Positions 8,826-24,779 of a stretch of DNA of 64,000 nt are shown in pieces (positions within the stretch are counted from its first letter, which is position 1; the number at the start of each line of letters is the position of its first letter). The translations under genes were made by a program, and so were the position numbers. Source of the DNA: an uncultured Chloroflexia bacterium (GTDB lineage Bacteria > Chloroflexota > Chloroflexia > QHBQ01 > JADMIH01); assembly GCA_963797095.1 (NCBI GenBank), contig CAWCNY010000004.1:320001-384000 (forward strand). Reading direction: 5' to 3'. The notes beneath the pieces are model-generated. The model worked only from the letters and a program-made list of their open reading frames with translations, did not search any database and was not told the DNA's origin.

Positions 8826-9533
8826 CTACTTCTTTGTTTCTGCTTTTCGCCTCCTGCCTGACTGCTGATCCTTGCTCCCCTTCTTCTCAAGCTTGACCAT
8901 GCGCAATATGTAGCTTGATTCAACCGGTTTATCGGCCTCGATTATTGAGCGCAGCGTTTCAATGTCCAATTCCTTAGGGTCGGGCACCGCCACAGTGATA
9001 GTAAAAGTGCGCGCGCGGTCCTCACCAATGGAAGTATTGAGGCCAAGCCGAGCATCCCCATCCAACCGAAAACCGTTTGTTCTGTCCTGGAGCAAGGTAA
9101 GCCCGCCCGCATAAATCCCGATGTGCCTCTTTATTCCTGCCGCGGTGCCCCTCATCCTGTAGAGCGCCGCGATTGCCGCCACCAGTGCGCGCCTCTTGGG
9201 CATCGGCCAGTCGTCCGCCTCGTCGTCCAGGTTCACCCAGAACTCCATCCAATCAAGCAGAGCCACAGGCGCGGTCATTGGATCGAAATAATAAGGCTGG
9301 TTATCCACCATCACCTGGATCGGCCCAAGCACATCCTCGAAGATCCTCAGAAACCGCCCTGCGAAGCTATCGGCAGAATAAATGGCCGGCAGATACTTCA
9401 GGTAGTTCGAAGCCTCCGGCTCAGTACCATCCGGGAAAGGGGGTGCCGCATGCCCGTTCAATGTGGGCCCCTGCGGTATCTGCGGCGCACCGGTCTCAAC
9501 CGTTCCTGTTAGCGATGTCAGCTTATCAGGCAT
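8826..9533 (-). CDS. Baseplate wedge / phage tail protein (P2 gpI-like, Afp12-type)
   Basis: YLKYLPAIY...FAGRFLRIFEDVL...YFDPMTAP...LYRMRGT motifs; directly downstream of the baseplate J-like gene. Confidence 0.85.
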   Translation of the reverse strand: MPDKLTSLTGTVETGAPQIPQGPTLNGHAAPPFPDGTEPEASNYLKYLPAIYSADSFAGRFLRIFEDVLGPIQVMVDNQPYYFDPMTAPVALLDWMEFWVNLDDEADDWPMPKRRALVAAIAALYRMRGTAAGIKRHIGIYAGGLTLLQDRTNGFRLDGDARLGLNTSIGEDRARTFTITVAVPDPKELDIETLRSIIEADKPVESSYILRMVKLEKKGSKDQQSGRRRKAETKK

Positions 9534-9580
9534 AAAACCTACTTCCTATCTCCCAAGTCAACCTCACCATGCCCCACTTT

Positions 9581-11542
9581 CTACTTCACGCTGACTCTAT
9601 GCGTGTGCGATGCCAGCAACCCATCCTTGGGACATGACAGAGTAGCTCCTACACCCGTCCGGTTGTCGTTGGACACATCGACCACGAACAGCCGCACGTT
9701 CTCCACAAACTCCACTCCCTCAATTCCCTGCACCAGCGCCGTAACCTCCGATTGGAACAGGCTCCGCTCCCAGGGCCAACCCGTCCCTTCTGTCCCTCCA
9801 TGTACGGGGTTGATCAACCTGTAGAGTCGCTTCTGTATCTCGGCCAACAGTGCTTCCTTGTTCGCTCGCCTGCGCGATTGCACCTCGACCTCCACACTAA
9901 CAAAGCGATATTCGGGCGCGTCAAGTTGCACCTGCGAAGTAAGCAGCCTCCTGTCATTCAGATACTGCATTACCTCGGCCCGTGCTCTATCATTCAATCG
10001 CAGTTCGCTGAGCGGCACGGGAGTGTCCTCATGATTGGTCTGGGGCACCAGCAGCACCTTAATCACGGCCCGCCCCGCTGCCAGCGCATCCGGTGTGGGC
10101 GGCACGCATCTCGCTCGCGCCACCTCCGGCGAAGCCTGCATAGCCAAATACTCGAAATCGTCCGTGGTAACAGCACGCGATCGAGCCCGCAGCATCGCCG
10201 GAGCCCTCAGCATTGCCATCTCAAGGGTCTCAGCATCTTCCCCACCAATAGCAGGCGAGAAGTTGGTTACCCGGTCAATATACGGAATAGACGACTTCAG
10301 CACCGTGATAGTGTTCTTGCCTATGTTCCCCCGCGTGCCCCCACCCGTTCTGTAGTGCGTGAATCTGATCAGCCTTCCCTGTGGCGGCACCGCCCCATAT
10401 TGCACCTCGCGCCCTCCCGCGTCGCGTATTGTTGGCCCAAATCGTAGCACCCCGGAATATTCGTCCAGTGTATAGTGCAGGTCTTCGTTCCCCGAGTCCC
10501 CAAAGTCTGAAACCTCCTCCCACTCCTCGAAGCTGCCGTCCTCCTGCTCCACCTCCACTACCTCTCCAGGTCTCCGCTCAAGCACAGGCGCGTAGCTCAA
10601 CTGCCACTCCTGACCCGCTTCGCCGTTTGATCTCCCCAAAACCTCGTTCTCGATCCTCTCCACCTGGCTGGCCGGGACGATCCCACCCAGCGACTCTGTC
10701 ACCACCCGGTGAACCCGAGGCGCATTGGAGTACGCCGGTTGCTTGGGGCGCGGCGATATGGCCCGGCACCTGATCCAGAACGCCACCCGCCCATCAAGAT
10801 CGCGAGGGCGTGCCCCAAAGGGCACATGCACGATAACGATCCCCTCCCGGTTCAGGCCGCCCGTCGTGTCCTCTTCCAGGTGCATCGGAAGCCACTCATT
10901 GGCCGGACCGTCCCAATATTCCCAAGCGAGTGGAGGATCTTTGGGGTCCACGCCATACCCCTTGATCGTAGCGTCAATATCCAGCCGCAGGATATGCCCC
11001 CTCAAATCCTCATAATATCCGAAATACATAGAGTCGTTGGGCTGTGGCGGGTCCTGGAAAATACCAACATCCAGGCTAGCATCCCGAAGCGCAGGCATAT
11101 AGTCATAGAATGCCTGTCCAACCCTGCTCACAAGCAACCCGTATTGTGTTGGCACATAAATTGTCAGGTCATAGTCCGTGGCAAACGTAATCGCATTCTG
11201 CTGCTCGGTCCGGACCGTAGCTACCTCTGTACCCAATGGAATCAGCACAGCGGCGGGTTGGGGTGCGGTCAAATAGAGCACTATATCAGTACGGGCCGGG
11301 CGCGGTGGCTCCAGCTTCAACCCAAGCATCTCAAGCCACTTGATATAGTTGCGCTCCGGTACCCGGTTGATCCTGAACAGCAGTATATCCACCATGTAGG
11401 CGAACAGCTCGATCAACGTCACGCCAGGGTCCGACACGTTGTGATCGGTCCACTCTGGGGTGTATCGCGGAATGAGCTTCTTCGCCTCGTTTACGAGGTC
11501 CTGGAAACTGCGGTCATCAAGTCTCGGTACTGGTAAAACCAT
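9581..11542 (-). CDS. Baseplate assembly protein (baseplate J-like, Afp11-type)
   Basis: LPVPRLDDRSFQDLV...PEWTDHNVSDPGVTLIELFA, YRTGGG..GN, GGEDAE and RAVTTDDFE motifs. Confidence 0.92.
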   Translation of the reverse strand: MVLPVPRLDDRSFQDLVNEAKKLIPRYTPEWTDHNVSDPGVTLIELFAYMVDILLFRINRVPERNYIKWLEMLGLKLEPPRPARTDIVLYLTAPQPAAVLIPLGTEVATVRTEQQNAITFATDYDLTIYVPTQYGLLVSRVGQAFYDYMPALRDASLDVGIFQDPPQPNDSMYFGYYEDLRGHILRLDIDATIKGYGVDPKDPPLAWEYWDGPANEWLPMHLEEDTTGGLNREGIVIVHVPFGARPRDLDGRVAFWIRCRAISPRPKQPAYSNAPRVHRVVTESLGGIVPASQVERIENEVLGRSNGEAGQEWQLSYAPVLERRPGEVVEVEQEDGSFEEWEEVSDFGDSGNEDLHYTLDEYSGVLRFGPTIRDAGGREVQYGAVPPQGRLIRFTHYRTGGGTRGNIGKNTITVLKSSIPYIDRVTNFSPAIGGEDAETLEMAMLRAPAMLRARSRAVTTDDFEYLAMQASPEVARARCVPPTPDALAAGRAVIKVLLVPQTNHEDTPVPLSELRLNDRARAEVMQYLNDRRLLTSQVQLDAPEYRFVSVEVEVQSRRRANKEALLAEIQKRLYRLINPVHGGTEGTGWPWERSLFQSEVTALVQGIEGVEFVENVRLFVVDVSNDNRTGVGATLSCPKDGLLASHTHRVSVK

Positions 11543-11596
11543 CTATTGCTCCCAAGGCAGAGTGCGGAACGCCTATCTTCTGCGAGTCCTGGCCGC

Positions 11597-12001
11597 CTAC
11601 TCAGGCCTGATTAGATAGAACGGGTACACCAGATTACGCTGGTCATTCGTAGTGCGCACCCGGTAGTGAATATTGATCAAGAGTTTGTTGCGCTCATCGA
11701 AATCTGTATCCACGTCCACGCGCAGTATCTCGACGCGAGGCTCCCACCAACCTATCGCCTCAGTGACGTACGTCTCCACCAATCCAGCCGTCGTGGCGTT
11801 ATTCGGTGCGAACACAAGATCATGGATTCCGCAACCGAACTCAGGCCTCATATGCCGCTCACCTTTGGCCGTACTCAGTATGATTCGGATCGCCTCGTCA
11901 ATATCAAACTCCTGCCGCGACAGGGCGATCCCCCCGCTGGGGCTTATCCTGAACGGGAAAGCCCAACCATTACCAAGAAAATCACCTTCGTCCATACTCA
12001 C
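11597..12001 (-). CDS. Baseplate gp25/GPW-like protein (Afp9-type)
   Basis: FLGNGWAFP...IILSTAKGERHMRPEFGCGI...WEPRV...NLVYPFY. Confidence 0.93.
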   Translation of the reverse strand: MSMDEGDFLGNGWAFPFRISPSGGIALSRQEFDIDEAIRIILSTAKGERHMRPEFGCGIHDLVFAPNNATTAGLVETYVTEAIGWWEPRVEILRVDVDTDFDERNKLLINIHYRVRTTNDQRNLVYPFYLIRPE

Positions 12002-12166: not shown

Positions 12167-13894
12167 TTAATTCATATTGATCCTGATCCCCTTGATATTC
12201 ACCTGTCCCGGTGTGCCTTCGATGTCTACTCCTTGCAACCCACTGATCTTCACCTTGCCCGTCTTCGACTTAATTTCGATATCCTGTTGCGCCTCGATCA
12301 GTATCTTGTTCTCCTTCGCGATAATCCTGATCAGGTTCTGTTCCGTCTTGTCTATCAGAATTATCCCTTCCGTAGGATCGGGGCTGTCATCAATCGTGAT
12401 CTCGTGTCCCAGCCTGCTCCTCATCACGCGCCTGATCGTTTGGCCCCCTGTCACCAACTTCCCAAGAGGTTTCGGCAATTTATCGTTACCGTTCCACACC
12501 GCCCCCAGCACATACCCGTAATTGGGGTCGCCATTCTGGAACGCCACCACCACTTCATCGTTCACTTCGGGCAAAAACGCGATGCCCCTTTGCGCCCCCG
12601 CCATCGTGCTCGCCAGCCTGCACCAATGGCTCTCGGTATCCAGCGCTGGTATCTTCACCTTCACTCTACCCAGGTTGTCGGGGTCCATATTGTTCGTAAC
12701 CAACCCCACCAACACCCCGTTTGCGGTCGGCTTGCCGCCTCGACCGTTGCTGCCGGGCGCTGCCGATGCGCCATTCTGGCTCCCCGACAGCAGGTCTGTG
12801 ATAGTCATCGTGCCGTTACCCCCACTCACCCAGAATTGCGTCGTATAAGCCTTGGATGTGTACCGGTGTTGCGCCCTCGTCACCAGGTATTTACCGCTGA
12901 ACCGCTCGCCCACCCCCTCAATCTTCACTGCGGTAGAGGCTTGTATCGCGGGGTTGCCCGAAGCCCGCCCCTCTGCCTGGACGAAATTGCTCGACATCCT
13001 ATCCAGGGCCGCCTGCGCGACCTTTTCGGCCTCCTTCGGCGAAAACACGGGGCGGTCTACGATCATATGCTTACCATGGATCGAGTGAGCCAGTACCGCC
13101 TCAGTTGCCCCCGTCCTTCCCTGGTCCCGGCGGTTCTGCAATGCCCCGGATGGGCGTGTCGCCCTCCCTACGATCTCTCGCTTTCCTTTCGGGTCCCACC
13201 CGCGCACCTCCACCTCCGTCACCTGCTCCATCGTCGTCAGGCGCGCCCTGAACTGCTGCAACGTCAACCCCCACTTTAGTACAGTCTCAACAGAAGGAGA
13301 CTCGGGCGGCTTCTCAAAATGCAGCGTCTTCCCTTCCACGTACAACCTGTACCCTATCCGCTGCGCCCGCTCCATCAGGAATTCCCAATCGGTCTGGTTC
13401 GCCTGCATCAGATACTCATACACCTCACTTGTGGCAGTAACTACTGCACGCAGGCTGGCTCCCTGCGCCAACCGCTGGGCGATATCCGAATCGGTCATGT
13501 TCAGATATGTCGTTGTTCGCCGCACTCTATGCAGACGGTGCGACAAATCATACCCGCGCGCCGTCAGCGTCGAACGCTCGGTACTGTTGATGTCCGGCTC
13601 GATAGAAGTGATCTCGCCCTTCATGAGCAGCACCCGGTCTGTGCTGCTCTCCAGTTGTATAGATAACTTCACTTTCCTCCCAGGCTTAAACACATCCGCC
13701 TTCAATGCGTCAAGATTCGGGTCCATGAGGTGTACCGCGAACATATCCGGCAGATAGAGCGAATCGTCCACCTCTACGCCCAACAGATTTGCCATATGCA
13801 CAGGGTCAAGGTGTTGATACCCGCCATCGGCGTCAATGTCGCCGTCGGTCAACTGGATGTAAATTTGCGATATGTGTTGTGTTGGCCCGCTCAT
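12167..13894 (-). CDS. vgrG: VgrG-like spike protein (Afp8-type)
   Basis: Q-x-N-Q-T-D-W-E-F-L hub motif, VEVRGWDPKGK, gp5 OB-fold GLVTNNMDPDNLGRVKVK...FLPEVNDEVVVAFQNGD and a short C-terminal beta-helix ending IRINMN. Confidence 0.92.
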   Translation of the reverse strand: MSGPTQHISQIYIQLTDGDIDADGGYQHLDPVHMANLLGVEVDDSLYLPDMFAVHLMDPNLDALKADVFKPGRKVKLSIQLESSTDRVLLMKGEITSIEPDINSTERSTLTARGYDLSHRLHRVRRTTTYLNMTDSDIAQRLAQGASLRAVVTATSEVYEYLMQANQTDWEFLMERAQRIGYRLYVEGKTLHFEKPPESPSVETVLKWGLTLQQFRARLTTMEQVTEVEVRGWDPKGKREIVGRATRPSGALQNRRDQGRTGATEAVLAHSIHGKHMIVDRPVFSPKEAEKVAQAALDRMSSNFVQAEGRASGNPAIQASTAVKIEGVGERFSGKYLVTRAQHRYTSKAYTTQFWVSGGNGTMTITDLLSGSQNGASAAPGSNGRGGKPTANGVLVGLVTNNMDPDNLGRVKVKIPALDTESHWCRLASTMAGAQRGIAFLPEVNDEVVVAFQNGDPNYGYVLGAVWNGNDKLPKPLGKLVTGGQTIRRVMRSRLGHEITIDDSPDPTEGIILIDKTEQNLIRIIAKENKILIEAQQDIEIKSKTGKVKISGLQGVDIEGTPGQVNIKGIRINMN

Positions 13895-13967
13895 CCTTCA
13901 CCCACAATGCCCAATAAACCACTCGCTACTCGTCACTCGCCACTCGTCACTCGTCGTCTTCCGTCTT

Positions 13968-14640: not shown

Positions 14641-17600
14641 TTATGTAAAGTTCCGCTCTCGCTCGATAGCGAGCCTCCGCTGGATCAGTGAATATATCGT
14701 ATCAGCAAGTTCTTCCATGTCCGGCCCAAACGATCTTTCCTCGTTGGGTGGGCGCTCCTCTCCGCTATCGGGTGCCGATCGCTCCTCGCCTGCAAGGGCC
14801 AACGCCACACTGCTCGCCGAAGATACCGCCGCACCTCCCACCGAGGCCGCAATTACATCAGCCCACATCCCCGCCTCCGCCGCGGCAGCAGGCGACTCTG
14901 CCGCCTCACCCCATGAATAATCCGTAAGCCACCCTACACTCTCCCCAGGCGAGTCAACTCGTGCTGGTGCTCTTTCCCACTCTATTTCTGTGCTTAAGGG
15001 ATATGTATAACCGGAGGTTGTGCTATATGCCTCGCCAGCTTCAACCATGCCATTATCAGGAATAGAATCCATTTCACCATCGTCCGGTGTCTCACTGCCA
15101 AAATAGCTCGCCCGCTCACCGGGCACCGCAAAACCTGCGTATGGCACGGCCAACGGCAGCATCGTAGACCCCTCCTGAGGACCGTACAAACGGTTGAGTG
15201 CCTCGATGTAATCCTCTACTTCACCGCCCTCTCCCACCGCCTCTTCCGGCGCAACACCTAGCTGTGTTAGCCGCAACATCTGAGCGGGTGCGCGCAACAC
15301 CCCTGCAAATGGCTCGCTGCTTCTCGCGCCAGGCGAACCCGCCTGGGTCGCCGACGGCCCGCGCCCAACATAGGCAGCCACGCGTGACCCGATGTCGCCC
15401 CTTCTCTGCGCCGCCGCGAATTGTCCGCGCCCGGAACCACTAGCCAGCGGACTTGCAAACTGCCCTGGAATCGCCTCACCCGATGTTATAGGCATGGTAC
15501 TCCTTGCCACCAGACCGGGACGTGATTCAACCCTCCATACTCCTCCCATCGGCGCAATCACTGAGGGTGGCAAATCGAGTTCCACTGAGCCGGAACTTAC
15601 CATATCGGAAGCAATATCTCCACCTAGACGCAGGGTCATCTCCAGACTGCGCGCCTGTCGCCCCGTCTCCCTCGATATACTTCGCCCACCCCTTAGATCA
15701 CCCAACCTTGCAAGGATGCGGGCCAACAGTCCTCCACCTACCACACTCGCCAGTGGACGTGCCTCCACCTCCGGCAGAGGACTGTGCGCCTCGGTCACCG
15801 CCTCCGCCATTTCCGGCATCGACTCCCAGACGGGCACCTCCTGCGTTTGCGCTTCATATGGCCCTACTATTGGCGACTGCGCTTCCCCAGGCCGAGCCTG
15901 CTCAAGTCTCGTGTGCTCTGCAACCGCGTCAACGGGGCTTGCTGCTTCTAAGCTTGTGTTTGCACTTTGAATCGAGTGCGGGATCGTCGGTACCTCAATG
16001 GGCCTTCCGGCCTCCGACGCCACCTGCTCCACACTCCCGACTTGTTCCATCGGGGTTTGCAGTTCTTCCAGGTTTTGCTCAACATGCACCTCTTTTGCGA
16101 TACTATGCTGCTCGGTAAGCACAACCCCGACAGATTCGACAGGCGCAGATGCAACTACACTCAACATAGGCGGCATAGGCACGGCAAATTCTGATGATTG
16201 CGATGGCACACCAACCACCGGAGCCACATCGCTCTCCGAGGGCGTTTCTACTTGTTCGACATCCTCCCGAACTGGCTGATTCCGCCGGACCCACGGCAAC
16301 GTCAGAGGGGCTGGTCCTCTCGCTTCAGTCCGGGTCGCCCCGCGCCCGCCAAACCTACTGAACAAAGAGCTGAGCAATCCTGCTGGCCCACGGCTAACAA
16401 TAACCGCCCTCTCTTCTCTGGGTGAAACAACGTCCGGCGATGAAACCTGTACTCGTGATTGTTGATCCGCAAGCACAGGCGGAACCGCTAGGCTGACCGC
16501 ACGGCCTTCCGGTGCAGTAGCTCTTTCTTCTAACGAATCCTGATCGGCAATCTCATCTTTGACCGCTATAGGAATCTCTCTAAAGACAATGTTACTCCCT
16601 GTCGCCACCACTTCGTGACTTGAAGTAGTGGGTGGGCTTACCTCAACTCTCACCGCTTCGGGCTGGATTGTTACAGCTTCTCCTTCTTCCACTCGCGTAA
16701 CCGCCACTCCCGCAGTCGACTCTAATCCACCGCTCGCCTGTTCCACGCGTGGTTCCTGCTGTGCCAGCCGCTTCACCGCCTCCGGCAACGGCAATATCTC
16801 CACGATCCGCTCGATAACCCGGCCCACGACCCCCCTCTGTTGGGCAGGTCGAGTAAGGTCAACGAAATCTTGGTTCGTTTCCTCAATTCGTGGGCGTACC
16901 TGAGGTTGGGCCAACGGCATCGCTAGGGCCTGTGGCGCGCTCTGCGAGGGCGTCACGGGCAAGGTCTGTACAGCGATGCTTTGAGGCGAAGCCTGCCCAA
17001 CCTGCTCCTGCTGCGGAGCGGATGATGGCGAAAGCTCCAGCTGGGCAGGCCGCACCATCCTCGATAGGAGATCGGTTGTTGGTGCTAGCGGCTGTTTGTT
17101 TCCAACTTGCAAATCACGATGAACGGCAGACTCCAACGTCCCGATCTCGAGCGCAGGGCGCTCTATGCCTGCCATAGGTGCTGCCCTTGTGATCGGCACA
17201 AGTGCGGGCAGTTCAGGCGGTCGAGGCACGCCCACCGGAGCGGGCACATACTCTATTCGAACGGTCACTGCGGGCGTAAAAGTGGGCGGCTTATCCGCGC
17301 CTTCCCAACCACCTTCCGCTTCCTTCCTGCCGCCCACTGCCCCCAAGGCCCCAGGTTCGGCCCACCGATCCACCTTTGGCATTTGTGGTTCCACACGCGC
17401 CTCAACCTGTCGCGTTACCGGCTGCGGCTCCCCCACAACACGTAGCGCCGAACTTGCTGAGGTTCGCGCACCCGTTCGCCTCGCGAATGGATCGGTCTCA
17501 GGCGCTTCCTGCACCACGGGCCGGGCACGCCACACGAACTGCGGGGGCGAAGCCGCACGCCGTATGCCTGCTGATCCATTTGGGGGCGTCGAACCAGCAT

Positions 17601-17871
17601 TCCCCAACATACGCGAGTTAGCCACTTCCCCACTTGCCGATGGTGGCGAATAGCCTAACCTGCGCGTGATCTCTCGCCATAGTGTGACAGGGTGCGGTGC
17701 GCGCACCCCCGGCCTGGCGAACGGCGACTGAAGCCTGCTCAATATCTGGTTCGCCAACCGCGTCGCTGCCCCGGCCGCGAGCAAAGGCATACCGCCGGAC
17801 CTTTGAATATTGGTCCCGCTTACGCCATCGTTCGCATCCTGCTTTCTTCTATTGTTACCCTTGTCGGCCAA
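14641..17871 (-). CDS. 1076-aa low-complexity (P/E/A/S/V-rich) CIS protein; tape-measure-like or lumen cargo candidate
   Basis: Long ORF with GAGGA SD, between tube 2 and the LysM gene. Mostly disorder-promoting residues, with C-terminal ELADTIYSLIQRRLAIERER. Confidence 0.65.
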   Translation of the reverse strand: MADKGNNRRKQDANDGVSGTNIQRSGGMPLLAAGAATRLANQILSRLQSPFARPGVRAPHPVTLWREITRRLGYSPPSASGEVANSRMLGNAGSTPPNGSAGIRRAASPPQFVWRARPVVQEAPETDPFARRTGARTSASSALRVVGEPQPVTRQVEARVEPQMPKVDRWAEPGALGAVGGRKEAEGGWEGADKPPTFTPAVTVRIEYVPAPVGVPRPPELPALVPITRAAPMAGIERPALEIGTLESAVHRDLQVGNKQPLAPTTDLLSRMVRPAQLELSPSSAPQQEQVGQASPQSIAVQTLPVTPSQSAPQALAMPLAQPQVRPRIEETNQDFVDLTRPAQQRGVVGRVIERIVEILPLPEAVKRLAQQEPRVEQASGGLESTAGVAVTRVEEGEAVTIQPEAVRVEVSPPTTSSHEVVATGSNIVFREIPIAVKDEIADQDSLEERATAPEGRAVSLAVPPVLADQQSRVQVSSPDVVSPREERAVIVSRGPAGLLSSLFSRFGGRGATRTEARGPAPLTLPWVRRNQPVREDVEQVETPSESDVAPVVGVPSQSSEFAVPMPPMLSVVASAPVESVGVVLTEQHSIAKEVHVEQNLEELQTPMEQVGSVEQVASEAGRPIEVPTIPHSIQSANTSLEAASPVDAVAEHTRLEQARPGEAQSPIVGPYEAQTQEVPVWESMPEMAEAVTEAHSPLPEVEARPLASVVGGGLLARILARLGDLRGGRSISRETGRQARSLEMTLRLGGDIASDMVSSGSVELDLPPSVIAPMGGVWRVESRPGLVARSTMPITSGEAIPGQFASPLASGSGRGQFAAAQRRGDIGSRVAAYVGRGPSATQAGSPGARSSEPFAGVLRAPAQMLRLTQLGVAPEEAVGEGGEVEDYIEALNRLYGPQEGSTMLPLAVPYAGFAVPGERASYFGSETPDDGEMDSIPDNGMVEAGEAYSTTSGYTYPLSTEIEWERAPARVDSPGESVGWLTDYSWGEAAESPAAAAEAGMWADVIAASVGGAAVSSASSVALALAGEERSAPDSGEERPPNEERSFGPDMEELADTIYSLIQRRLAIERERNFT

Positions 17872-17958
17872 TATTCCTCACTTATCTCTTATTTCACCTG
17901 TCTCTACCCAAACAGGAAGTCCCTCATGTTGCTTTCGATCCGGTCTTCGACCAACCAT

Positions 17959-18390
17959 CTATGTAATTTGCAAGCCCTCATGAGTCAATTGCAGCGACTG
18001 TATTGCACCCTGGCTCTGGTCCGACTTGAATTGCGGGCCTGTCCATTTTACAGGCAGAGCATGTATGAAGCTCCAGCGCATCTTCTCAACCCCGTGCTGA
18101 TCAACCATAATGATCGACACATTACGCCGCTCAAAATCCCCCTGCAATATCTTCTTGTACCAATCCCACAGCTCATTTGACGTAGTAATTCCGTTCTTCA
18201 GGGTGATATCTGACACCTTCACACGCCCAGGCAGCCTGTGAACATGATCGTTCACGCCCCCCTCCTCGTAATTTGTCACCTCCACCTCTATATCCAGCCC
18301 CGTAACCTCGGTGAACACGGCCTGCCCCACACCGTCCACATGGAAGTGGAAAGTCGTCATAGGATCTGTGCGATTACTGGTTCCAGACAT
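17959..18390 (-). CDS. Tail tube protein 2 (T4 gp19-like, Afp5-type)
   Basis: DPMTTFHF...FTEVTGL...YEEGGVNDHVHRLPGRVK..DITLKNG...ALPVKWTGP. Confidence 0.92.
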   Translation of the reverse strand: MSGTSNRTDPMTTFHFHVDGVGQAVFTEVTGLDIEVEVTNYEEGGVNDHVHRLPGRVKVSDITLKNGITTSNELWDWYKKILQGDFERRNVSIIMVDQHGVEKMRWSFIHALPVKWTGPQFKSDQSQGAIQSLQLTHEGLQIT

Positions 18391-18455
18391 CTAGTCCCTC
18401 TTTCAGTCAAACACTTTATGCCCTGTGCAACACGCAGTAGACTATGATCTACCCC

Positions 18456-19100
18456 TCACCACCCATAAGCAGCCCGCTCCCGATCAAGCACAAGATCGCG
18501 CACGATCAAACCATACACGGCATCCGCGATGTCCTCCGGGTCAGGTGGCTCTTTGCCTGCCTGGTTCTCCGCCGTTGCGCCAACCCGCTGCCGCACCATC
18601 GCTTGCTCTATCGCTTCAGCAGCCACCTCTGATCCGGAAAGACTTGCCGGCGCTGGAGCATTTGGCCCCGGAGTTCGTTGAACTGCCAATCCCCTCCCGC
18701 GCGATGCGCCCGAAATCCCACTGGCACCCATACTCCGCGACCGCGCTCCACTGCTTGCCCTCAACAAAGGCATATCAATTGTGGGTGCAACACCCGTCTG
18801 CTCGCCAACATGGTATAGCTCATGGGCCAACAGCGACATACTCCTGGCACTAGCGGGTCGCATCAACTCCGGCCTTACATAAACATCGCGCCCCACGGTA
18901 AACGCACGTGCTCCCAACCGGCGAGCAAGCTCCCCCGCCTGCGCCGTGTCATGCACGCGCACCTCGCCCAACCGCCCAACCAACCTACGCACCCAGGCGC
19001 TCCGGTCAAGCGCCAAATCAGCATGTCCGACCAAAAAATCCTCACCTGTATATCCCAGCTCATCCACAACATTTCCCTTCCCATTCTGCCTACTCGCCAC
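18456..19100 (-). CDS. DUF4157 (eCIS core, HExxH) domain protein
   Basis: VRVHD...ARRLGARAFTVGRDVY...LLAHELYHVGEQ; C-terminal EDIADAVYGLIVRDLVLDRER. Start position uncertain because heptamer repeats overlap it. Confidence 0.85.
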   Translation of the reverse strand: MASRQNGKGNVVDELGYTGEDFLVGHADLALDRSAWVRRLVGRLGEVRVHDTAQAGELARRLGARAFTVGRDVYVRPELMRPASARSMSLLAHELYHVGEQTGVAPTIDMPLLRASSGARSRSMGASGISGASRGRGLAVQRTPGPNAPAPASLSGSEVAAEAIEQAMVRQRVGATAENQAGKEPPDPEDIADAVYGLIVRDLVLDRERAAYGW

Positions 19101-19124
19101 TCGTCACTCGCCACTCCTCACTCG

Positions 19125-19289
19125 TCACTCCTGCGTCTTGTTCAACTCAGTATTGATACTCGCGATCTGGTCCACCCAGGCGCGGCGCTCTGCGTGTTCC
19201 AGCTCCATTATCTCGGCCAGGGGCCAATGGAAGTAATACGCTATATAGGCTACCTCTTCTCTGAGCTGGTCGAGAGGGTAGCCGATCAT
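19125..19289 (-). CDS. DUF6760-like small protein (54 aa), absent from the ORF track
   Basis: Manual translation MIGYPLDQLREEVAYIAYYFHWPLAEIMELEHAERRAWVDQIASINTELNKTQE; ATGA overlap with the upstream chaperone stop. Confidence 0.85.
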   Translation of the reverse strand: MIGYPLDQLREEVAYIAYYFHWPLAEIMELEHAERRAWVDQIASINTELNKTQE

Positions 19290-19684
19290 TCCCCCGATGG
19301 AACCAACTCCACTTCAAACTGGTGCCCGCAATTAGGGCATTGCGTTGGGATAGTGCTGTGCTCCGCCTCGTTGATGCGCCGGTAAAGGTCTTGCAGATAG
19401 GCGAAGTCTGCCGAGAACATGTTTTCGATCACACCTGTATGCACCTGAGCCAGCGTCCCAAGCTTCGTGATCACCCGCGACAACAAGACGACGGTCAGGT
19501 AAGCCTGGTTCTGTTTGACCCGCATATCCCGCATCGGCACGATCTCGTCCATCGCTGTTGCGAGGCGCATCGTACCCTCCCGGTGCAGGTTCCCATCGCT
19601 ATCCACATACCCTCTCGGCAAGATGAAGTCGAATTCGGTTTGCAGCCCCTTCGCAGGCGCGCGCTCCTTCTCAGGTACGAACAT
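19286..19684 (-). CDS. Phage-type tail assembly chaperone with C-terminal CxxC
   Basis: LQTEFDFILPRGYVD..G.LHREGTMRLATAMDEI...AYLTVVLLSRVITKLG...FSADFAYLQDLYRRIN...CPNCG. Confidence 0.85.
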   Translation of the reverse strand: MFVPEKERAPAKGLQTEFDFILPRGYVDSDGNLHREGTMRLATAMDEIVPMRDMRVKQNQAYLTVVLLSRVITKLGTLAQVHTGVIENMFSADFAYLQDLYRRINEAEHSTIPTQCPNCGHQFEVELVPSGE

Positions 19685-19713
19685 TCCGCTTCCTTTCTAG
19701 CTTCGCGAATTAC

Positions 19714-19772
19714 GAATTACGAATTACGAATCACAGCTCGCTAACGCCGCCGCCATTCGTAATTCGTAATTC
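19714..19772. terminator. 18-bp perfect inverted repeat built from GAATTAC heptamers, downstream of tube 1; possible terminator or mRNA-stabilising stem
   Basis: Arms GAATTACGAATTACGAAT (19714-19731) and ATTCGTAATTCGTAATTC (19755-19772). Function inferred only. Confidence 0.45.
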
Positions 19773-19787
19773 ATGGTTCCTTTTAGC

Positions 19788-20252
19788 TTAGCCGGTCCGC
19801 TCCAGCCCTTCGTGCACGATCTCAAGCTCTTCGATGCCCACCTCGTTCGTGCTCGAATTGAGCGATGGGCCGGAGATCTTCCGGGGCCATGCGCGCAGGA
19901 AGCTCCAGCGCGCCACTTCGTCACCATTCTGGTTCACCATCACGATCGAGCCATTGGCGCGGGCCGATTCCACCTGGCCTTCCTCAACCAACTTCCGCCA
20001 CTGCCACGCCTCCATTGAGTTGGTGATGCCGCGCTTCAGGTTGATCGGCGTCCACTTCAACCGGCCTGGCACGGCCTGGATAGTGTGATAATCTTGTTTG
20101 GTGCTCCCCTTATACTCGATCAACTCGGTCTCCGAGCCGATACCGGAGCACTCGCGGAACACCATATTGTCAAGATGACCGTCCACGCTTACATAAAAGT
20201 GCGCCTGGACCAACGGGTCAACGCGAACTGCTCGTCCTTCCATTCCGGGCAT
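19788..20252 (-). CDS. Major tail tube protein (T4 gp19-like, Afp1-type)
   Basis: DPLVQAHF...FRECSGIGSETELIEYK...PGRLKWTPINLKRGIT...NGSIVM...AWPRKISGP...IEELEIVHEG; GGAGG SD. Confidence 0.93.
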   Translation of the reverse strand: MPGMEGRAVRVDPLVQAHFYVSVDGHLDNMVFRECSGIGSETELIEYKGSTKQDYHTIQAVPGRLKWTPINLKRGITNSMEAWQWRKLVEEGQVESARANGSIVMVNQNGDEVARWSFLRAWPRKISGPSLNSSTNEVGIEELEIVHEGLERTG

Positions 20253-20346
20253 AGTTGTGTTCCTCCATATTGGTACATGCTGGGCCCCAGCCCAACATCA
20301 TCGAATTGCCATAACCGAGAACTCGCCACTCGTCACTCGCCACTCG

Positions 20347-21948
20347 CTACTCACTGACCGACCCCCCGCTCTGCCACTGGCTCAAGCGGATAATCACAAA
20401 CTCGGCAGGTTTTACAGGGCAGATGCCAACTTCGATAATCAGCTGGCCCACGTCACGGGTCTCCGGTGGGTTGTTCTCTTCATCGCACTTCACGTAGAAC
20501 GCTTCCTTAGCGGTATTCCCGAAGAGTGCCCCATCGCGCCAGGTGCGCATCAAGAACGCCCCGATATCCCGCTTCACCCTCTCCCACAGGTCTCTGTCGT
20601 TCGGTTCGAACACTGCCCATTGCGTCCCCTGCAATAGCGACTTCTCGACATAGTTGAACAGTCGTCGCACATTCAGGTAGCGCCACGATGGATCGCTCGA
20701 CACAGTGCGAGCGCCCCATACCCGGATGCCCCTGCCGGGGAACGTCCTGATCACATTGATCCCGACCGGGTTCAAGATCGACTGCTCGTTGTGGGTCGTC
20801 TGGTATTCCAGGCCAATCGCACCAGCCACGACCTCGTTGGCCGGGGCCTTGTGCACGCCCCTCTGGTCGTCGTTGCGCGACCATATGCCCGCCATGTGAC
20901 CGCACGGCGGCACATAGATGCCGGAGCCATTGCCCAGCGGGTTGGCTACCCTGATCCAGGGGTAATACAACGTCCCGTACTTGCTATCGTAATTGACCTC
21001 TTTCATGCGCCAATCGCGGATGCGTTGAGGATTCATCCCCGGAGGCGAATTGAGGATCGCTACCCGGTCGCCCATGTTCTGGGAGTGGTCCAGCATCGCC
21101 TGTTGAACTGCCTGCACGCCCTCCATGTCGATCCGTCCAGCCTGGTACAGCGCCCACAGGTCCGGGAAGCAGACCATGGTAGCGTCCTCGGCCACTTCCA
21201 ACCCGTTAACGCCACTTCGCTCCGAGGCATCCCCTATAAGCAGGTCGGTTCCCATTCGCGAGTTTTGCGTCGCCAGCGCCGTCTCGCTTGGCAGCGACAG
21301 CGGGTAGCTGCCAGGTGATGGCATTCGCTCTGCCGCGCTTGCCGAGCTTTCACGCTCTGCTAACCTCACCAGCTTCAATTCGGCGTTCACTATATCTATC
21401 GCGTTGCGCACCCTGCGCCCGCGTCCCATAGTTACATTCTCGAATCTTTCCTCAGCATCGCCCTGCTTCACGACCACCGTGAATGCATCCTCCGGCGCTG
21501 GCTGGCCGTCGGCGGGAGCCGTGCCCGGCTGTATCTCCAGGGTGATCGAGCTACCCGTCGAGCCAGAGTCGCGTGCCGTCGCATCAAACGACACTGCCCC
21601 GCCACCCGCCAGCGCAGGCACACCCACACTCGCCGTCGGCAATTGAGCGGCCCCTCGCTTCGCCGAAGCGGCGTCGGCTTCGCTCATCGGCAGTCGGGTG
21701 ATATAGCACGTTGATCCGCCGTTGTTGAAGAACCCATATACGGCGTGCGCCAGGTAACCTCCAGGTATGAAGTTACCGAACGTATTGACGAACTGCGTCC
21801 AGTTGGCGATAAACGTAGGCTCGTTGATCGGGCCGCGCTCCGAAAAGCCCACAAAGGCCGCGATGCGCGTCCCCACACCCTCGATTGGCTTACTACCCTT
21901 ATCCACCTCCTCGACGTATACGCCTGGGGTCAAGTAAGTTGTGGCCAT
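20347..21948 (-). CDS. Contractile tail sheath protein (Afp2/3/4-type)
   Basis: YLTPGVYVEEV, YGFFNNGG, LYYPWI, VPPCGHMAG, RGVHKAPANE, VWGART, WRYLNVRR, WAVFEPND, PVKPAEFVI; ATG 21948 with AAAGGAG SD. Confidence 0.96.
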   Translation of the reverse strand: MATTYLTPGVYVEEVDKGSKPIEGVGTRIAAFVGFSERGPINEPTFIANWTQFVNTFGNFIPGGYLAHAVYGFFNNGGSTCYITRLPMSEADAASAKRGAAQLPTASVGVPALAGGGAVSFDATARDSGSTGSSITLEIQPGTAPADGQPAPEDAFTVVVKQGDAEERFENVTMGRGRRVRNAIDIVNAELKLVRLAERESSASAAERMPSPGSYPLSLPSETALATQNSRMGTDLLIGDASERSGVNGLEVAEDATMVCFPDLWALYQAGRIDMEGVQAVQQAMLDHSQNMGDRVAILNSPPGMNPQRIRDWRMKEVNYDSKYGTLYYPWIRVANPLGNGSGIYVPPCGHMAGIWSRNDDQRGVHKAPANEVVAGAIGLEYQTTHNEQSILNPVGINVIRTFPGRGIRVWGARTVSSDPSWRYLNVRRLFNYVEKSLLQGTQWAVFEPNDRDLWERVKRDIGAFLMRTWRDGALFGNTAKEAFYVKCDEENNPPETRDVGQLIIEVGICPVKPAEFVIIRLSQWQSGGSVSE

Positions 21949-22064
21949 AAACACTCCTTTCTAACTACACTGTCAACCCGCAACGGACGACATGATCTTC
22001 ATCTATTGCAACGACCCTCGTCCAATCCGAATTCTGTGATCCGAAATCCGAAATCCCAATAGGC

Positions 22065-23045
22065 TCACCTCCTCCGGCCTTTGCCGCCTGGCGACGGACC
22101 CGGCTGCTGGCCGGCGTCTCCTTCATTTGTGGGTGGCGATCTGTCACCGCCGCTGGTTGATCCTCCTTCCCGGCGCTGCCGTATGATCAAGTCGTAACCA
22201 TCACCGGGAACATCAATCTTCCTTTCGGTTTGCGCCCAATCGGGGTGCGTAGCCCGCAACATATAAGACCCATGCACCACATGCGAGAACCTGAAGCGGC
22301 CTTCAGGGTCAGTCTTCGACCTCAGCCCTCGCCCTACTATTTCCACTTCCACTCCCATGTCCCGGGCAGGCATGGGCGGCGCTCCATCGTTCTCCACCAG
22401 CACCCACCCTCCGATCTGCGACACAGGCACTTCATACGCCGCGGCCCCTTCCATATCGGGGTGCACCAGCACCCGCCTGGTGAGCACCAACGGCACCCCA
22501 ACCAGTTGGTCTGGATCGAGCGGCAGCGTCACCGTCAATTGCACCCCCGGTTTCACATACGACTCCAGGCTGCTCCACAGGTCGCTAGGATTCTTGAACG
22601 GCCCATCGCTCTGAGCAACCTTAACGGGCACCGGCCACTCCTGCTCGGCCAGCACTCCCTGTAGCTTCTCCTGTGGTATCTGGCGGTAGCGCATGAATGA
22701 AGCAAAAGCTCGCCACAGCAGCCGGTGTTCGTCCTCCACCAGGTTGGCCCAGGCGGTGATCAAATAGTGAGCATCGATCCGCGACGGCATCCTGCGTCTG
22801 ATCGCGCCCACCCGTATCCCACCCTCACCCGTCTGCATGGCTTGCATCCGCTCAGTTTCCCAGTCTAAGTTCCTCAGGTCGGTATTTTCCACCATGTGGT
22901 ACAGGTAGCAGTTCAGCGTTGGTCGCGCCAGCGACCCGCTCCACTCCTTCGTAGGCGCGTCAAACACCACGTCAATTTCGGCGATGTCTAGCGGCACCCC
23001 CTCAATCAGGAGTTGCTTGATCGTTTCGTCCAGGTCGGTAATCAT
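22065..23045 (-). CDS. Pvc16/DUF4255 cap protein with C-terminal carboxypeptidase-regulatory-like beta domain
   Basis: MITDLDETIKQLL...VFDAPTKEW...PTLNCYLY...HYLITAW...DEHRLL; C-terminal TDPEGRFRFSHV..GSYMLRA. Confidence 0.85.
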   Translation of the reverse strand: MITDLDETIKQLLIEGVPLDIAEIDVVFDAPTKEWSGSLARPTLNCYLYHMVENTDLRNLDWETERMQAMQTGEGGIRVGAIRRRMPSRIDAHYLITAWANLVEDEHRLLWRAFASFMRYRQIPQEKLQGVLAEQEWPVPVKVAQSDGPFKNPSDLWSSLESYVKPGVQLTVTLPLDPDQLVGVPLVLTRRVLVHPDMEGAAAYEVPVSQIGGWVLVENDGAPPMPARDMGVEVEIVGRGLRSKTDPEGRFRFSHVVHGSYMLRATHPDWAQTERKIDVPGDGYDLIIRQRREGGSTSGGDRSPPTNEGDAGQQPGPSPGGKGRRR

Positions 23046-23476: not shown

Positions 23477-23519
23477 AATCTAGCACCACTGCGTTAGCGC
23501 AGCATTAGCCACGCGTTAG
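23477..23519 (-). promoter_or_regulatory. SARP-type promoter: three heptamers (CTAACGC/CTAATGC/CTAACGC) with 4-nt spacers, 8 nt upstream of extended -10 TGcTAGATT
   Basis: Plus-strand GCGTTAG 23491-23497, GCATTAG 23502-23508, GCGTTAG 23513-23519 and AATCTA 23477-23482; directly below the SARP gene. Confidence 0.7.
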
Positions 23520-24532
23520 GGGAATGTATAGTGCGCCGCGCGCTCATGCAACTGGCACGTCACGAGCAACGCTTGTGTCTCCGCTCCCGGCTCCATCCCA
23601 AGCTCTCGCTTCAGCGTGCGCGCGCACAGGTTGTACCAGTAAAGGGCGCGTGCGGGTTGCCCCAACCTGGCATGGCTCAAGATCAGGTGGCGATAAGCAT
23701 CTTCTCGGCAGTCGTCTTGCGCCAGTAGCTTCTGCGACCATATCACAGCGCCCATATAGTCGCCCGCATCAAACGACATCCCGGCCAGCATTGTCAGAAT
23801 GGTTGAATATGCGTCGCGCAGCGCCTCTCGCCTGAGCAGCGTCCAGTCCGCATAAGGCTCGTCAAGCAGATAATCACCCGTGTACAATGCCTCGGCCTCC
23901 TCGTACTCCATCATAGCCTCCGTGAGCCGTTCGTCCCTTTTCAGCCGCCAGCCATTGTGCCAGTGCCGCTCGAACTCCTCCACGTCTACCCATAATTCAA
24001 GCTCAGGGTTGAGCATAATGTTGCTCCCCTGCGGAATCACCAGTTCCTCACCATTCGGCGGTGCGTAGCTACTGCTCAAGCTTCTCCGAAGGGTGTGCAT
24101 AACCACGCGCAGGCGGCCCTGTCCCACGGATGGAGAAGCATCAGGCCACAGCAGGTCGAGCAATGCCTCCCTCGATACCGGGTGCTTCCTGTGCCCGATC
24201 AAATACTTCAATATCGTTTGCGCCTGCCCAGGCATCTCGGCCAACACCTTGGTTTGCCCGGCCATCAGCTGGAAAGGTCCAAGCAAATACGCCCTTAGCT
24301 CCGGAGGCGCAGGCCTCTCGCGCCCTTCCTTCAGGTCCGCATCTTCGCTCAGATATGGTTCTCTAGCTTCGTTTGGCTGGTCAAGGGCATCGCCAAGCGC
24401 AGCCAGATCCTCTCCAAGGGCATTCAGCGAGGCCGCAAGCCGCCGGTATTTGGCGCGGGCCTGCGCGAATCTATCGCTAAGTGCCGAGGTTTCTCTTCCC
24501 CTCAGCCTGGCAGCCAATCCCTTCACATCCAT
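23516..24532 (-). CDS. SARP/AfsR-family transcriptional activator (OmpR-type wHTH + BTAD)
   Basis: AYLLGPFQL, SREALLDLLWPD...RLRVVMHTLRR, WVDVEEFE, ALYTGDYL..EPYADW, EDAYRHLI, LKRELGMEPG. Start at 24532 or 24583. Confidence 0.92.
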   Translation of the reverse strand: MDVKGLAARLRGRETSALSDRFAQARAKYRRLAASLNALGEDLAALGDALDQPNEAREPYLSEDADLKEGRERPAPPELRAYLLGPFQLMAGQTKVLAEMPGQAQTILKYLIGHRKHPVSREALLDLLWPDASPSVGQGRLRVVMHTLRRSLSSSYAPPNGEELVIPQGSNIMLNPELELWVDVEEFERHWHNGWRLKRDERLTEAMMEYEEAEALYTGDYLLDEPYADWTLLRREALRDAYSTILTMLAGMSFDAGDYMGAVIWSQKLLAQDDCREDAYRHLILSHARLGQPARALYWYNLCARTLKRELGMEPGAETQALLVTCQLHERAAHYTFP

Positions 24533-24779
24533 AACGTATCCACGGCTCGGTCTAAATGAACGATCGGTCGCCGGAGCAAACAAAAGATAGTCTAACCCGA
24601 CTTCTTTCCTGAAGACTAACTGGAGATAAGGCGGGTAGTACCAATGGAACCTGCTGGCACGAAGTGTGTCGTGTAGATGTTATTACCTGACCCCTCTCGT
24701 TTCAGGGGCCAATCAGGCAAGTGTATTTTGAATAATAGCACCGACGCTTGTGGGTGTCAACAGCACTATTGTCGCATAT

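Follow-up and report, generated by a model that had tools for sequence, protein, structure and literature searches.

A conserved C-terminal helix beside the second tube gene as a probable spike-hub anchor, and possible end of a length ruler, in lineage II contractile injection systems

Why do two proteins encoded on either side of one tube gene end in the same stretch of about 25 residues? The question arises from a 64,000-nucleotide stretch of DNA of an uncultured Chloroflexia bacterium (the window), which carries a contractile injection system (CIS). An earlier note had described the shared tail and had placed its two genes, ORFs of 1076 aa and 214 aa, on the flanks of tube 2, and both observations were borne out. 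The features of the locus are as follows.

8826..12001, minus strand: wedge genes (gp25, 11597-12001; baseplate J, 9581-11542; Tail_P2_I, 8826-9533)
12167..13894, minus strand: VgrG-like hub and spike (Cis8), fused type; hub domain at residues 8-357, the predicted partner of the helix
13968..14627, minus strand: LysM tube initiator (Cis7)
14641..17871, minus strand: 1076-aa low-complexity chain encoded in the plug (cis6) slot; candidate for both plug and tape measure
14653..14724, minus strand: basic motif copy (B), at residues 1050-1073 of the 1076-aa protein, as its C-terminal helix
17959..18390, minus strand: tube 2 (Cis5/Cis1b, gp19-like), between the two motif genes
18456..19100, minus strand: 214-aa ORF with DUF4157 (eCIS_core, residues 38-103), linker and motif
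18474..18545, minus strand: acidic motif copy (A), at residues 186-209 of the DUF4157 ORF, as its C-terminal helix
19125..19289, minus strand: small DUF6760 ORF, weakly P2 GpE-like, in the -1 frame relative to the chaperone; probable frameshift extension
19286..19684, minus strand: tail assembly chaperone (phrog_508, E 2e-6), with G GGG GAA preceding its stop
19788..20252, minus strand: tube 1 (Cis1)
20347..21954, minus strand: sheath (Cis2)
22065..23045, minus strand: Pvc16-type cap/terminator (Cis16)

The two 24-residue tails align without gaps at 13 of 24 identical positions. Ungapped comparison of the last 40 residues of each protein gave a BLOSUM62 score of 72, which none of 5000 shuffles equalled (maximum 43), and the runner-up among 901 window frames, ranked by summed score against both tails, reached 21 and 37. 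Moreover, a profile HMM seeded with 61 genes from the slot between tube 2 and LysM (slot B) of other genomes, the window being left out, recovered both window copies among 20,858 frames (iE 1e-6 and 0.006). The shuffle test and the window-free recovery together rule out chance similarity, and a recent DNA duplication was rejected, as none of the 20 largest repeat families (of 25) is common to both motif regions. Contrary to the earlier note, the two proteins are related; they belong to one modular family, in which DUF4157 occurs on either motif partner in other genomes.

The hydrophobic columns of the motif are periodic, in keeping with a C-terminal amphipathic helix like that of the Cis6/Afp6 plug. 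For the copy in the DUF4157 protein, AF2 predicts a helix at residues 188-212 (pLDDT ~91), preceded by a low-confidence linker. In this protein nothing but a linker and a short helix stands between the DUF4157 match (E 1e-17) and the motif, and there is no variable C-terminal effector domain. The real start of its gene is probably GTG 19067, giving 203 aa, because the Met of homologues aligns there and a 7-mer repeat of the intergenic region reaches into the additional codons. The 1076-aa protein lacks DUF4157, has no match in Pfam or PHROG and no transmembrane segment above 1.7 mean hydropathy, and consists to 60% of P/A/S/G/E/Q/T, with 10% Pro. Its middle shows no similarity to 60 other slot-B bodies, and two shorter relatives of its tail were found among three candidates.

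The distribution of the motif was followed with a genome scan on tube 2, chosen as query because the LysM alignment is too divergent for genome scanning; the best 80 of 574 matches were used, a sample biased to tube 2 relatives rather than a census. The earliest HMM, made from the tails of DUF4157 proteins, was so narrow that distant copies escaped it. Among the loci (GTDB) from these best 80 of 574 matches, the motif ends the gene between tube 2 and LysM in 61 of the 63 with LysM visible, 47 of the 61 having seeded the profile, and loci with a motif gene directly upstream of LysM come from both bacteria and archaea. In the same sample, all 81 motif matches in 18,730 frames fall in two slots beside tube 2, always at fixed structural-gene positions with one or two copies per locus. 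A library search with the motif profile returned 3351 clusters; in the best 150 of them the motif is terminal throughout, and the domains present are solely DUF4157 (4) and DUF5908 (1). These results support the CIS specificity of the motif. No family for the motif was found in Pfam, NCBIfam or PHROGs, and the ESM Atlas yielded unnamed clusters alone, most frequently from Chloroflexota and Deinococcota. PDB searches with the motif, the DUF4157 protein, the motif profile and a small slot-6 protein returned nothing beyond designed helical bundles or chance matches.

Slot-B proteins span 280-2000 aa and have a low-complexity middle that varies between conserved ends. The N-terminal ends of 28 of 61 connect via an F..xI..KY helix, whose HMM does not detect the 1076-aa protein. 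Length can differ between close relatives (1015 aa in L063, 1350 aa in L064), and Streptomyces motif proteins centre near 1000 aa, with 98 of 120 at 900-1200. In H. borinquense, a 2192-codon ORF ends in the motif and abuts the LysM gene.

The slot itself points to the plug. In the Serratia, Mycetohabitans, Azospirillum and Persicobacter loci a small DUF5908 plug occupies the place of the 1076-aa gene, with the second tube gene on one side and the LysM initiator on the other, as for Cis6/Alg6/Afp6/Pvc6; the DUF4157 gene lies instead upstream of tube 2. A bridge sequence, P0160, matches both the motif (E 4e-9) and, over profile positions 2-55 of 55 and with 30.2 bits against a cutoff of 27.7, DUF5908. 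Plug and motif further share a terminal amphipathic helix of about 25 residues and the hub as predicted partner. By contrast, known plugs are proteins of 53-62 aa with an N-terminal strand, whereas the helix here comes in two subtypes and ends a 280-2000-aa chain or a DUF4157 protein. Neither window protein is a small protein with an N-terminal strand matching DUF5908 (PF19265), and PF19265 matched none of 64 motif rows and neither window protein. Profile-profile comparison with four DUF5908 plugs by hhalign was not significant (probability 1.7%, E 0.028), the motif profile matched none of the solved plugs in the PDB, and seven small slot-6 proteins scored poorly against the motif HMM, a single one beating nearly all its shuffles (2 of 500 reach its score). 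Published work describes the plug as three C-terminal helices assembled inside the cavity of the spike (PMC8894135, PMC12546770, PMC8894136). Against a plug role counts the S. coelicolor baseplate model, which, as presented in PMC12237407, comprises Cis1b/7/8/9/11/12 and no plug chain.

The hub of the window clusters with Roseiflexus-type hubs in a quick tree, and its best structure match is 9GTR. The co-prediction with the VgrG hub that the earlier note had proposed, modelled as two hubs with three motif helices, scored 0.56 against 0.04 for the best control, in which an unrelated protein took the place of the hub. At least 84% of contacts recur between runs, the partner pLDDT is at least 61, and no interface was returned. 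The tool grades this result as weak: its mark is reached by 116 of 157 solved pairs and 2 of 215 mismatched pairs, and 18 of these solved pairs and both mismatches lie at 0.60 or under. Solved plugs already known to the predictor may account for the pass, and the model supports binding of the helix to the hub weakly.

One motif column separates the two subtypes, being acidic in all 19 copies upstream of tube 2, whereas 53 of the 62 copies downstream have a basic residue there (best 80 of 574 matches). The acidic subtype upstream of tube 2 marks a single, mostly Chloroflexota clade. A heteromeric bundle of acidic and basic helices is plausible from this charge pattern; it cannot be obligate, because Streptomyces has the acidic copy alone and most other loci the basic copy alone.

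The gene for the long chain is linked to that of a tail chaperone. All 59 loci in which chaperone and LysM genes are both visible have the motif; of 63 loci, 62 have DUF6760 in the -1 frame, and in 46 the chaperone gene finishes with a G-run (best 80 of 574 matches for each count). In 13 loci the chaperone is present without a DUF6760 match, and none of seven small-plug loci inspected has a chaperone between tube and plug genes. In phages the known client of the tail chaperone pair is the tape measure. Slot-B proteins resemble tape measures (Afp14/Alg14; diffocin CD1366) in being long, variable in length and conserved at both ends, with a C-terminal helix that would lie at the baseplate, and in being encoded beside a tail chaperone that has a frameshift extension. 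They differ from these tape measures in a low-complexity middle in place of a known coiled coil, in having no family match, and in that the motif gene in most loci follows tube 2 and does not precede it. The C-terminal helices of tape measures are reported to trimerise at the baseplate (PMC11329794). Four proxy pairs of protein and particle length gave 0.25-0.29 nm per residue, three of them pairing different species and the fourth using a contracted sheath scaled by the ratio of another species. Reports on the tube lumen count against such a chain: they describe it as mostly empty in an S. coelicolor effector mutant (PMC10066040) and as free of extra density in H. borinquense (PMC11566945). 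An SCO4249 peptide from purified particles was not taken as support for the motif protein, since a divergent promoter is reported to lie between sco4248 and sco4249.

We propose that the motif is the anchor (plug) helix of the spike hub and that its long carrier acts as a length ruler, a combined reading to which we assign a probability of roughly 0.6. The anchor role taken by itself is likely, and the ruler role stands at about even odds. Three copies of the terminal helix would most likely form a bundle docked in that cavity of the VgrG hub which faces the tube, as the Cis6/Alg6/Pvc6 plug does and as the C-termini of phage tape measures do. In lineage II the plug helix would end a long low-complexity chain that replaces the small free protein, runs up the tube during assembly while held by the adjoining chaperone pair, and probably sets the needle length. 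In Chloroflexota-type loci the second gene would supply an acidic helix, here fused to DUF4157, probably to the same bundle. A more specific version is tentative: a single gene product would be plug and ruler in lineage II systems of bacteria and archaea alike, with a largely non-helical chain at ~0.25 nm per residue held in the hub by this helix, and the anchor of the Chloroflexota-type clade would be a charge-complementary heterotrimer of two genes.

The helix could be anchored in the hub while the chain serves as luminal filler, scaffold or tethered passenger and sets no length. The missing tape-measure family match of slot-B proteins in Pfam and PHROG speaks for this, as do their widely differing lengths, the cargo-associated DUF4157 on eight of them and their low-complexity middles, given that the PROCIS preprint (10.64898/2026.05.27.728243) describes eCIS tape measures as almost wholly helical. 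We nevertheless consider it unlikely in view of the link to a -1 frameshifted chaperone pair, the conserved ends, the narrow length range in Streptomyces and the rank-order fit of protein length to particle length. It is improbable that the helix binds the chaperone, the cap or the tube initiator ring in place of the hub, or that it does no more than self-assemble as a coiled coil: tube-domain fusions in L036 and L072 hint at the tube ring, the plug homology lacks statistical significance, and the hub model lacks an interface, but replacing the hub with an unrelated protein abolishes nearly all of the score, and gene slot and P0160 indicate a plug.

The other half of the earlier note, a loading signal that would recruit diverse effectors and reveal further cargo genes, fared worse and is very improbable. 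The motif does end varied proteins, being fused to DUF4157 (window, L009), a tube domain (L036, L072) or almost nothing, and a DUF4157 protein of S. lividans is reported to co-elute with the tube initiator (PMC13277306). However, among the best 80 of 574 matches it occurs on one of 31 DUF4157 frames found with the domain of the window, and the 30 without it include those inserted in the same slot in L038, L042 and L049. Neither the best 150 of 3351 library matches nor 60 slot-B proteins contain a toxin or enzyme domain, the positions are fixed, and tested cargo uses N-terminal sequences. What stands of the note is anchoring at the spike/baseplate end, which the plug slot, P0160 and, weakly, the hub prediction favour.

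The 214-aa ORF shares DUF4157 with cargo and adaptor proteins (Cgo1/2, Tme, Sle2). Tme, encoded just upstream of baseplate genes, is reported to co-purify with spike and tube initiator (PMC11126660); it ends in a nuclease, whereas the 214-aa ORF ends in the anchor helix. The locus has the same gene order and fused VgrG as the cytoplasmic CIS of subtype IId in Roseiflexus (PMC12998442) and Streptomyces (PMC12237407). The Streptomyces account as available (PMC12237407) names no plug and states that a tape measure is absent, and the corresponding part of the Roseiflexus account (PMC12998442) mentions neither. According to Chen et al. 2019 (PMC6899500), afp6 is absent from lineage II except IIb and afp14 is generally absent, with compensation by unknown subtype-specific genes left open. 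Casu 2025 reports S. coelicolor particles all 268 nm long, yet no tape-measure gene, and for H. borinquense, where the 2192-codon motif ORF stands beside LysM, Zachs 2024 lists both plug and tape measure as missing.

The long plug-helix protein probably supplies the needle-base plug that lineage II systems were thought to lack, and it may also be their length setter. It would have been overlooked because of its low complexity, the lack of a family model and gene tables that record merely the last 71-182 codons of such ORFs. If the more specific version is true, particle length would be readable from sequence (about 270-310 nm at this locus) and tunable, and through one gene of the heterotrimer the spike would hold either a tethered DUF4157 adaptor or an additional tube domain. 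The 25-residue marker points to a candidate plug/ruler gene in each lineage II system, and makes testable how systems reported without plug and tape measure are built.

The window carries on its - strand an extracellular-type contractile injection system (CIS) cluster in the order Pvc16 cap, sheath, tube 1, chaperone, DUF6760, DUF4157 gene and tube 2, followed by the 1076-aa gene, LysM initiator, VgrG, gp25, baseplate J and Tail_P2_I. Neither a PAAR gene nor an Afp15-type AAA ATPase was found among the 50 ORFs scanned (window 2249-24583). In a quick hub tree, the VgrG-like hub clusters with Chloroflexota-type hubs; where relatives of the DUF4157 protein or of the 1076-aa protein's tail are named, they are Chloroflexia or Chloroflexota. 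A BTAD/SARP-type regulator (23516-24583) lies ahead of the cluster, and a DUF4159 protein gene (7616-8797, -) immediately follows the last baseplate gene. Three tandem genes at 2249-7613 (-) each encode Ig-like domains and one transmembrane segment, similar in architecture to Sco4256-type CIS-associated proteins, a likeness drawn from the description of architecture only. Intergenic arrays of a 7-mer (ACTCGCC/ACTCGTC) occupy three gene junctions (13907-13955, 19078-19140 and 20307-20355), and GAATTAC arrays form an inverted pair between tube 1 and the chaperone (19707-19779).

The C-terminal motif that the earlier note saw on both the 1076-aa and the DUF4157 protein is borne out: the two 24-mers share 13 identities, a score reached by 0 of 5000 shuffles. 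The motif is kept in DUF4157 homologues, where A192, Y196 and R209 are invariant across 52 aligned rows (51 of 98 matches, those of similar architecture, were used). The AF2 model of the DUF4157 protein, of low overall pTM (0.41), predicts the motif as a confident helix, which suggests that this helix does not pack on the DUF4157 domain.

A tube 2 alignment was used to fetch 80 GTDB loci (the best 80 of 574 confirmed), in which gene order is strongly conserved. Within these best 80, this ending recurs on the longest ORFs that separate tube 2 from LysM, in Chloroflexota, Bacillota, Actinomycetota, Cyanobacteriota, Acidobacteriota, Nitrospirota, Spirochaetota, Pseudomonadota and archaea. Sixty-one of these ORFs, picked after inspection, seeded an HMM, excluding L020, L056, L064 and L086, whose longest ORF lacks the motif; the first three loci and both window copies were regained as non-seed matches. 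A profile of 64 rows (2 from the window, 47 downstream and 15 upstream) gave 81 matches in 18,730 frames, each at most nine residues from a stop. In this search of CIS loci, of the kind proposed in the earlier note, all 81 fall in two positions: slot A, before tube 2, and slot B, between tube 2 and the LysM initiator. The motif fills slot B in 61/63 loci (L086 has a small plug-like gene there, and L088 is empty) and slot A in 17/75 loci plus L027 and L036, counts that are partly circular because most rows seeded the profile; the specificity, with no match outside the two slots, is not circular.

Among 22 plasmid stretches, the motif occurs in Nostoc, Paenibacillus, Rhizobium, Burkholderia, Brasilonema (two), Kovacikia and two haloarchaea, as well as in a rearranged Deinococcus grandis locus, behind the sheath gene. 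In Streptomyces, the motif carries a 4-residue insertion and is present in slot A alone; no copy was found in the part of the locus in view for Treponema (L006) and Deinococcus (L008). A search of 1.84 billion representatives with the profile matched 3351 clusters (E up to 0.001); in the best 150 of these, the motif ends at most nine residues from the C-terminus, and Pfam assigned DUF4157 to 4, DUF5908 to 1 and no domain to 145. These library matches come without genomic context, so their CIS linkage is presumed. The motif is a real, widespread and unannotated CIS motif.

The copies fall into two subtypes that differ at profile column 22: the residue there is acidic in 19/19 slot-A copies and in 2/62 slot-B copies, and basic in 53/62 slot-B copies, a charge rule that the window pair obeys. 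In most two-copy loci, slot A is a bare protein of 55-85 aa; it is fused to DUF4157 in the window and L009, and to a tube domain in two loci:
L036 254-886, extra tube-like gene, product ending in the motif, directly ahead of the normal tube 2
L072 9302-9979, extra tube-like gene, product ending in the motif, directly ahead of the normal tube 2
With slot A bare, an internal DUF4157 is found in slot B (8/60 slot-B proteins scanned), and slot B lacks DUF4157 where slot A has it (window, L009). Because of this complementary placement, the two genes resemble a single module divided in two different ways, and the earlier description of the two proteins as unrelated gives way to a domain alternating between partners. 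The nine two-copy rows occupy a single region of the quick hub tree (1 change), so these loci are kin rather than independent events, and the second subtype is clade-specific.

The earlier reading of the motif as a loading signal and marker of further cargo was rejected: 30/31 DUF4157 frames lack it, the exception being the L009 slot-A gene, in a search with the window's domain that missed eight divergent internal slot-B domains. DUF4157 cargo-like genes without the motif lie directly behind tube 2 in L038 (9245-10453), L042 (1615-2775) and L049 (10516-11868).

The slot B position points to the spike hub. In lineage I loci it is occupied by the small DUF5908 plug, which PMC8894135, PMC8894136 and PMC12546770 describe as three C-terminal helices inside the spike cavity, needed for assembly according to two of them. 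The library match P0160 joins a plug-type N-terminal strand, a linker and the motif, and scores above the DUF5908 cutoff. A model pairing three helices with two hub domains scored 0.56 versus 0.04 for the best control, with contact agreement of at least 84% and partner pLDDT of at least 61, returned no interface, and is rated weak on a mark reached by 116/157 solved and 2/215 mismatched pairs (18 solved and 2 mismatched at 0.60 or under); this score possibly reflects the model's memory of solved plugs. Against homology to plugs, hhalign of the motif profile with four plugs was not significant, motif HMM scores were weak on seven small slot-6 proteins, and no solved plug in the PDB was matched; the motif does not qualify as a DUF5908 member. 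Weighing slot position, P0160 and the hub model against this weak homology, the motif helix has a fair probability of working like a plug.

The slot-B chain carrying it is a candidate tape measure. Slot-B proteins span about 280-2035 aa and have no Pfam domain besides DUF4157; a short conserved helix links the N-termini of 28/61, and that of the 1076-aa protein links to a second group (n=16). The upstream chaperone matches phrog_508 and overlaps DUF6760 in the -1 frame (19125-19684, -), with G GGG GAA ahead of the stop; in 62/63 loci, DUF6760 comes next in the -1 frame, with the G-run conserved. Phage chaperone pairs share this arrangement, their client being the tape measure, and DUF6760 probably extends the chaperone by programmed frameshifting, as in P2 E/E'. 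In 13 loci (L010-L018, L020, L021, L027, L031), the chaperone is present with no DUF6760 match, and a bare motif gene directly follows it.

Published particle lengths are 217 nm extended (86.7 nm in purified preparations) for R. castenholzii, 365 (unit not printed) for D. aquatilis, 268 nm for S. coelicolor (PMC12237407) and 220 nm contracted for H. borinquense (PMC11566945). They were paired with proxies of 872 aa (uncultured Roseiflexus), 1259 aa (D. grandis) and 1011 aa (median of 120 Streptomyces matches), and with 2192 aa from the same H. borinquense strain, its contracted length scaled to about 550 nm. The ratio is 0.25-0.29 nm per residue with matching rank order; with four points that rest on proxies, this is no more than a lead. 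Such values lie between helix and extended chain, a possible parallel to proline-rich type III secretion rulers. Tube lumens that look empty (PMC10066040 and PMC11566945) and the S. coelicolor spike cavity left unmodelled (PMC12237407) argue against the chain being retained. The motif also closes open frames of 1380-2320 codons in L004 (5404-11982), L101 (1851-8819) and L002 (2237-6388); the plasmid gene tables list only their last 182, 177 and 71 codons, alongside small genes on the opposite strand, and GC is flat over codon positions in the L002 and L004 frames.

In the open literature searched, no paper was found on the motif or assigning these genes, and DUF6760 occurs in none of 23 listed papers; subscription papers, figures and bioRxiv supplements may already note the genes, and the subtype-specific gene groups of Chen 2019 may include them unnamed. 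Altogether, the motif is most likely a plug helix that anchors in the hub and is carried by a candidate tape measure; its second subtype is specific to one clade.
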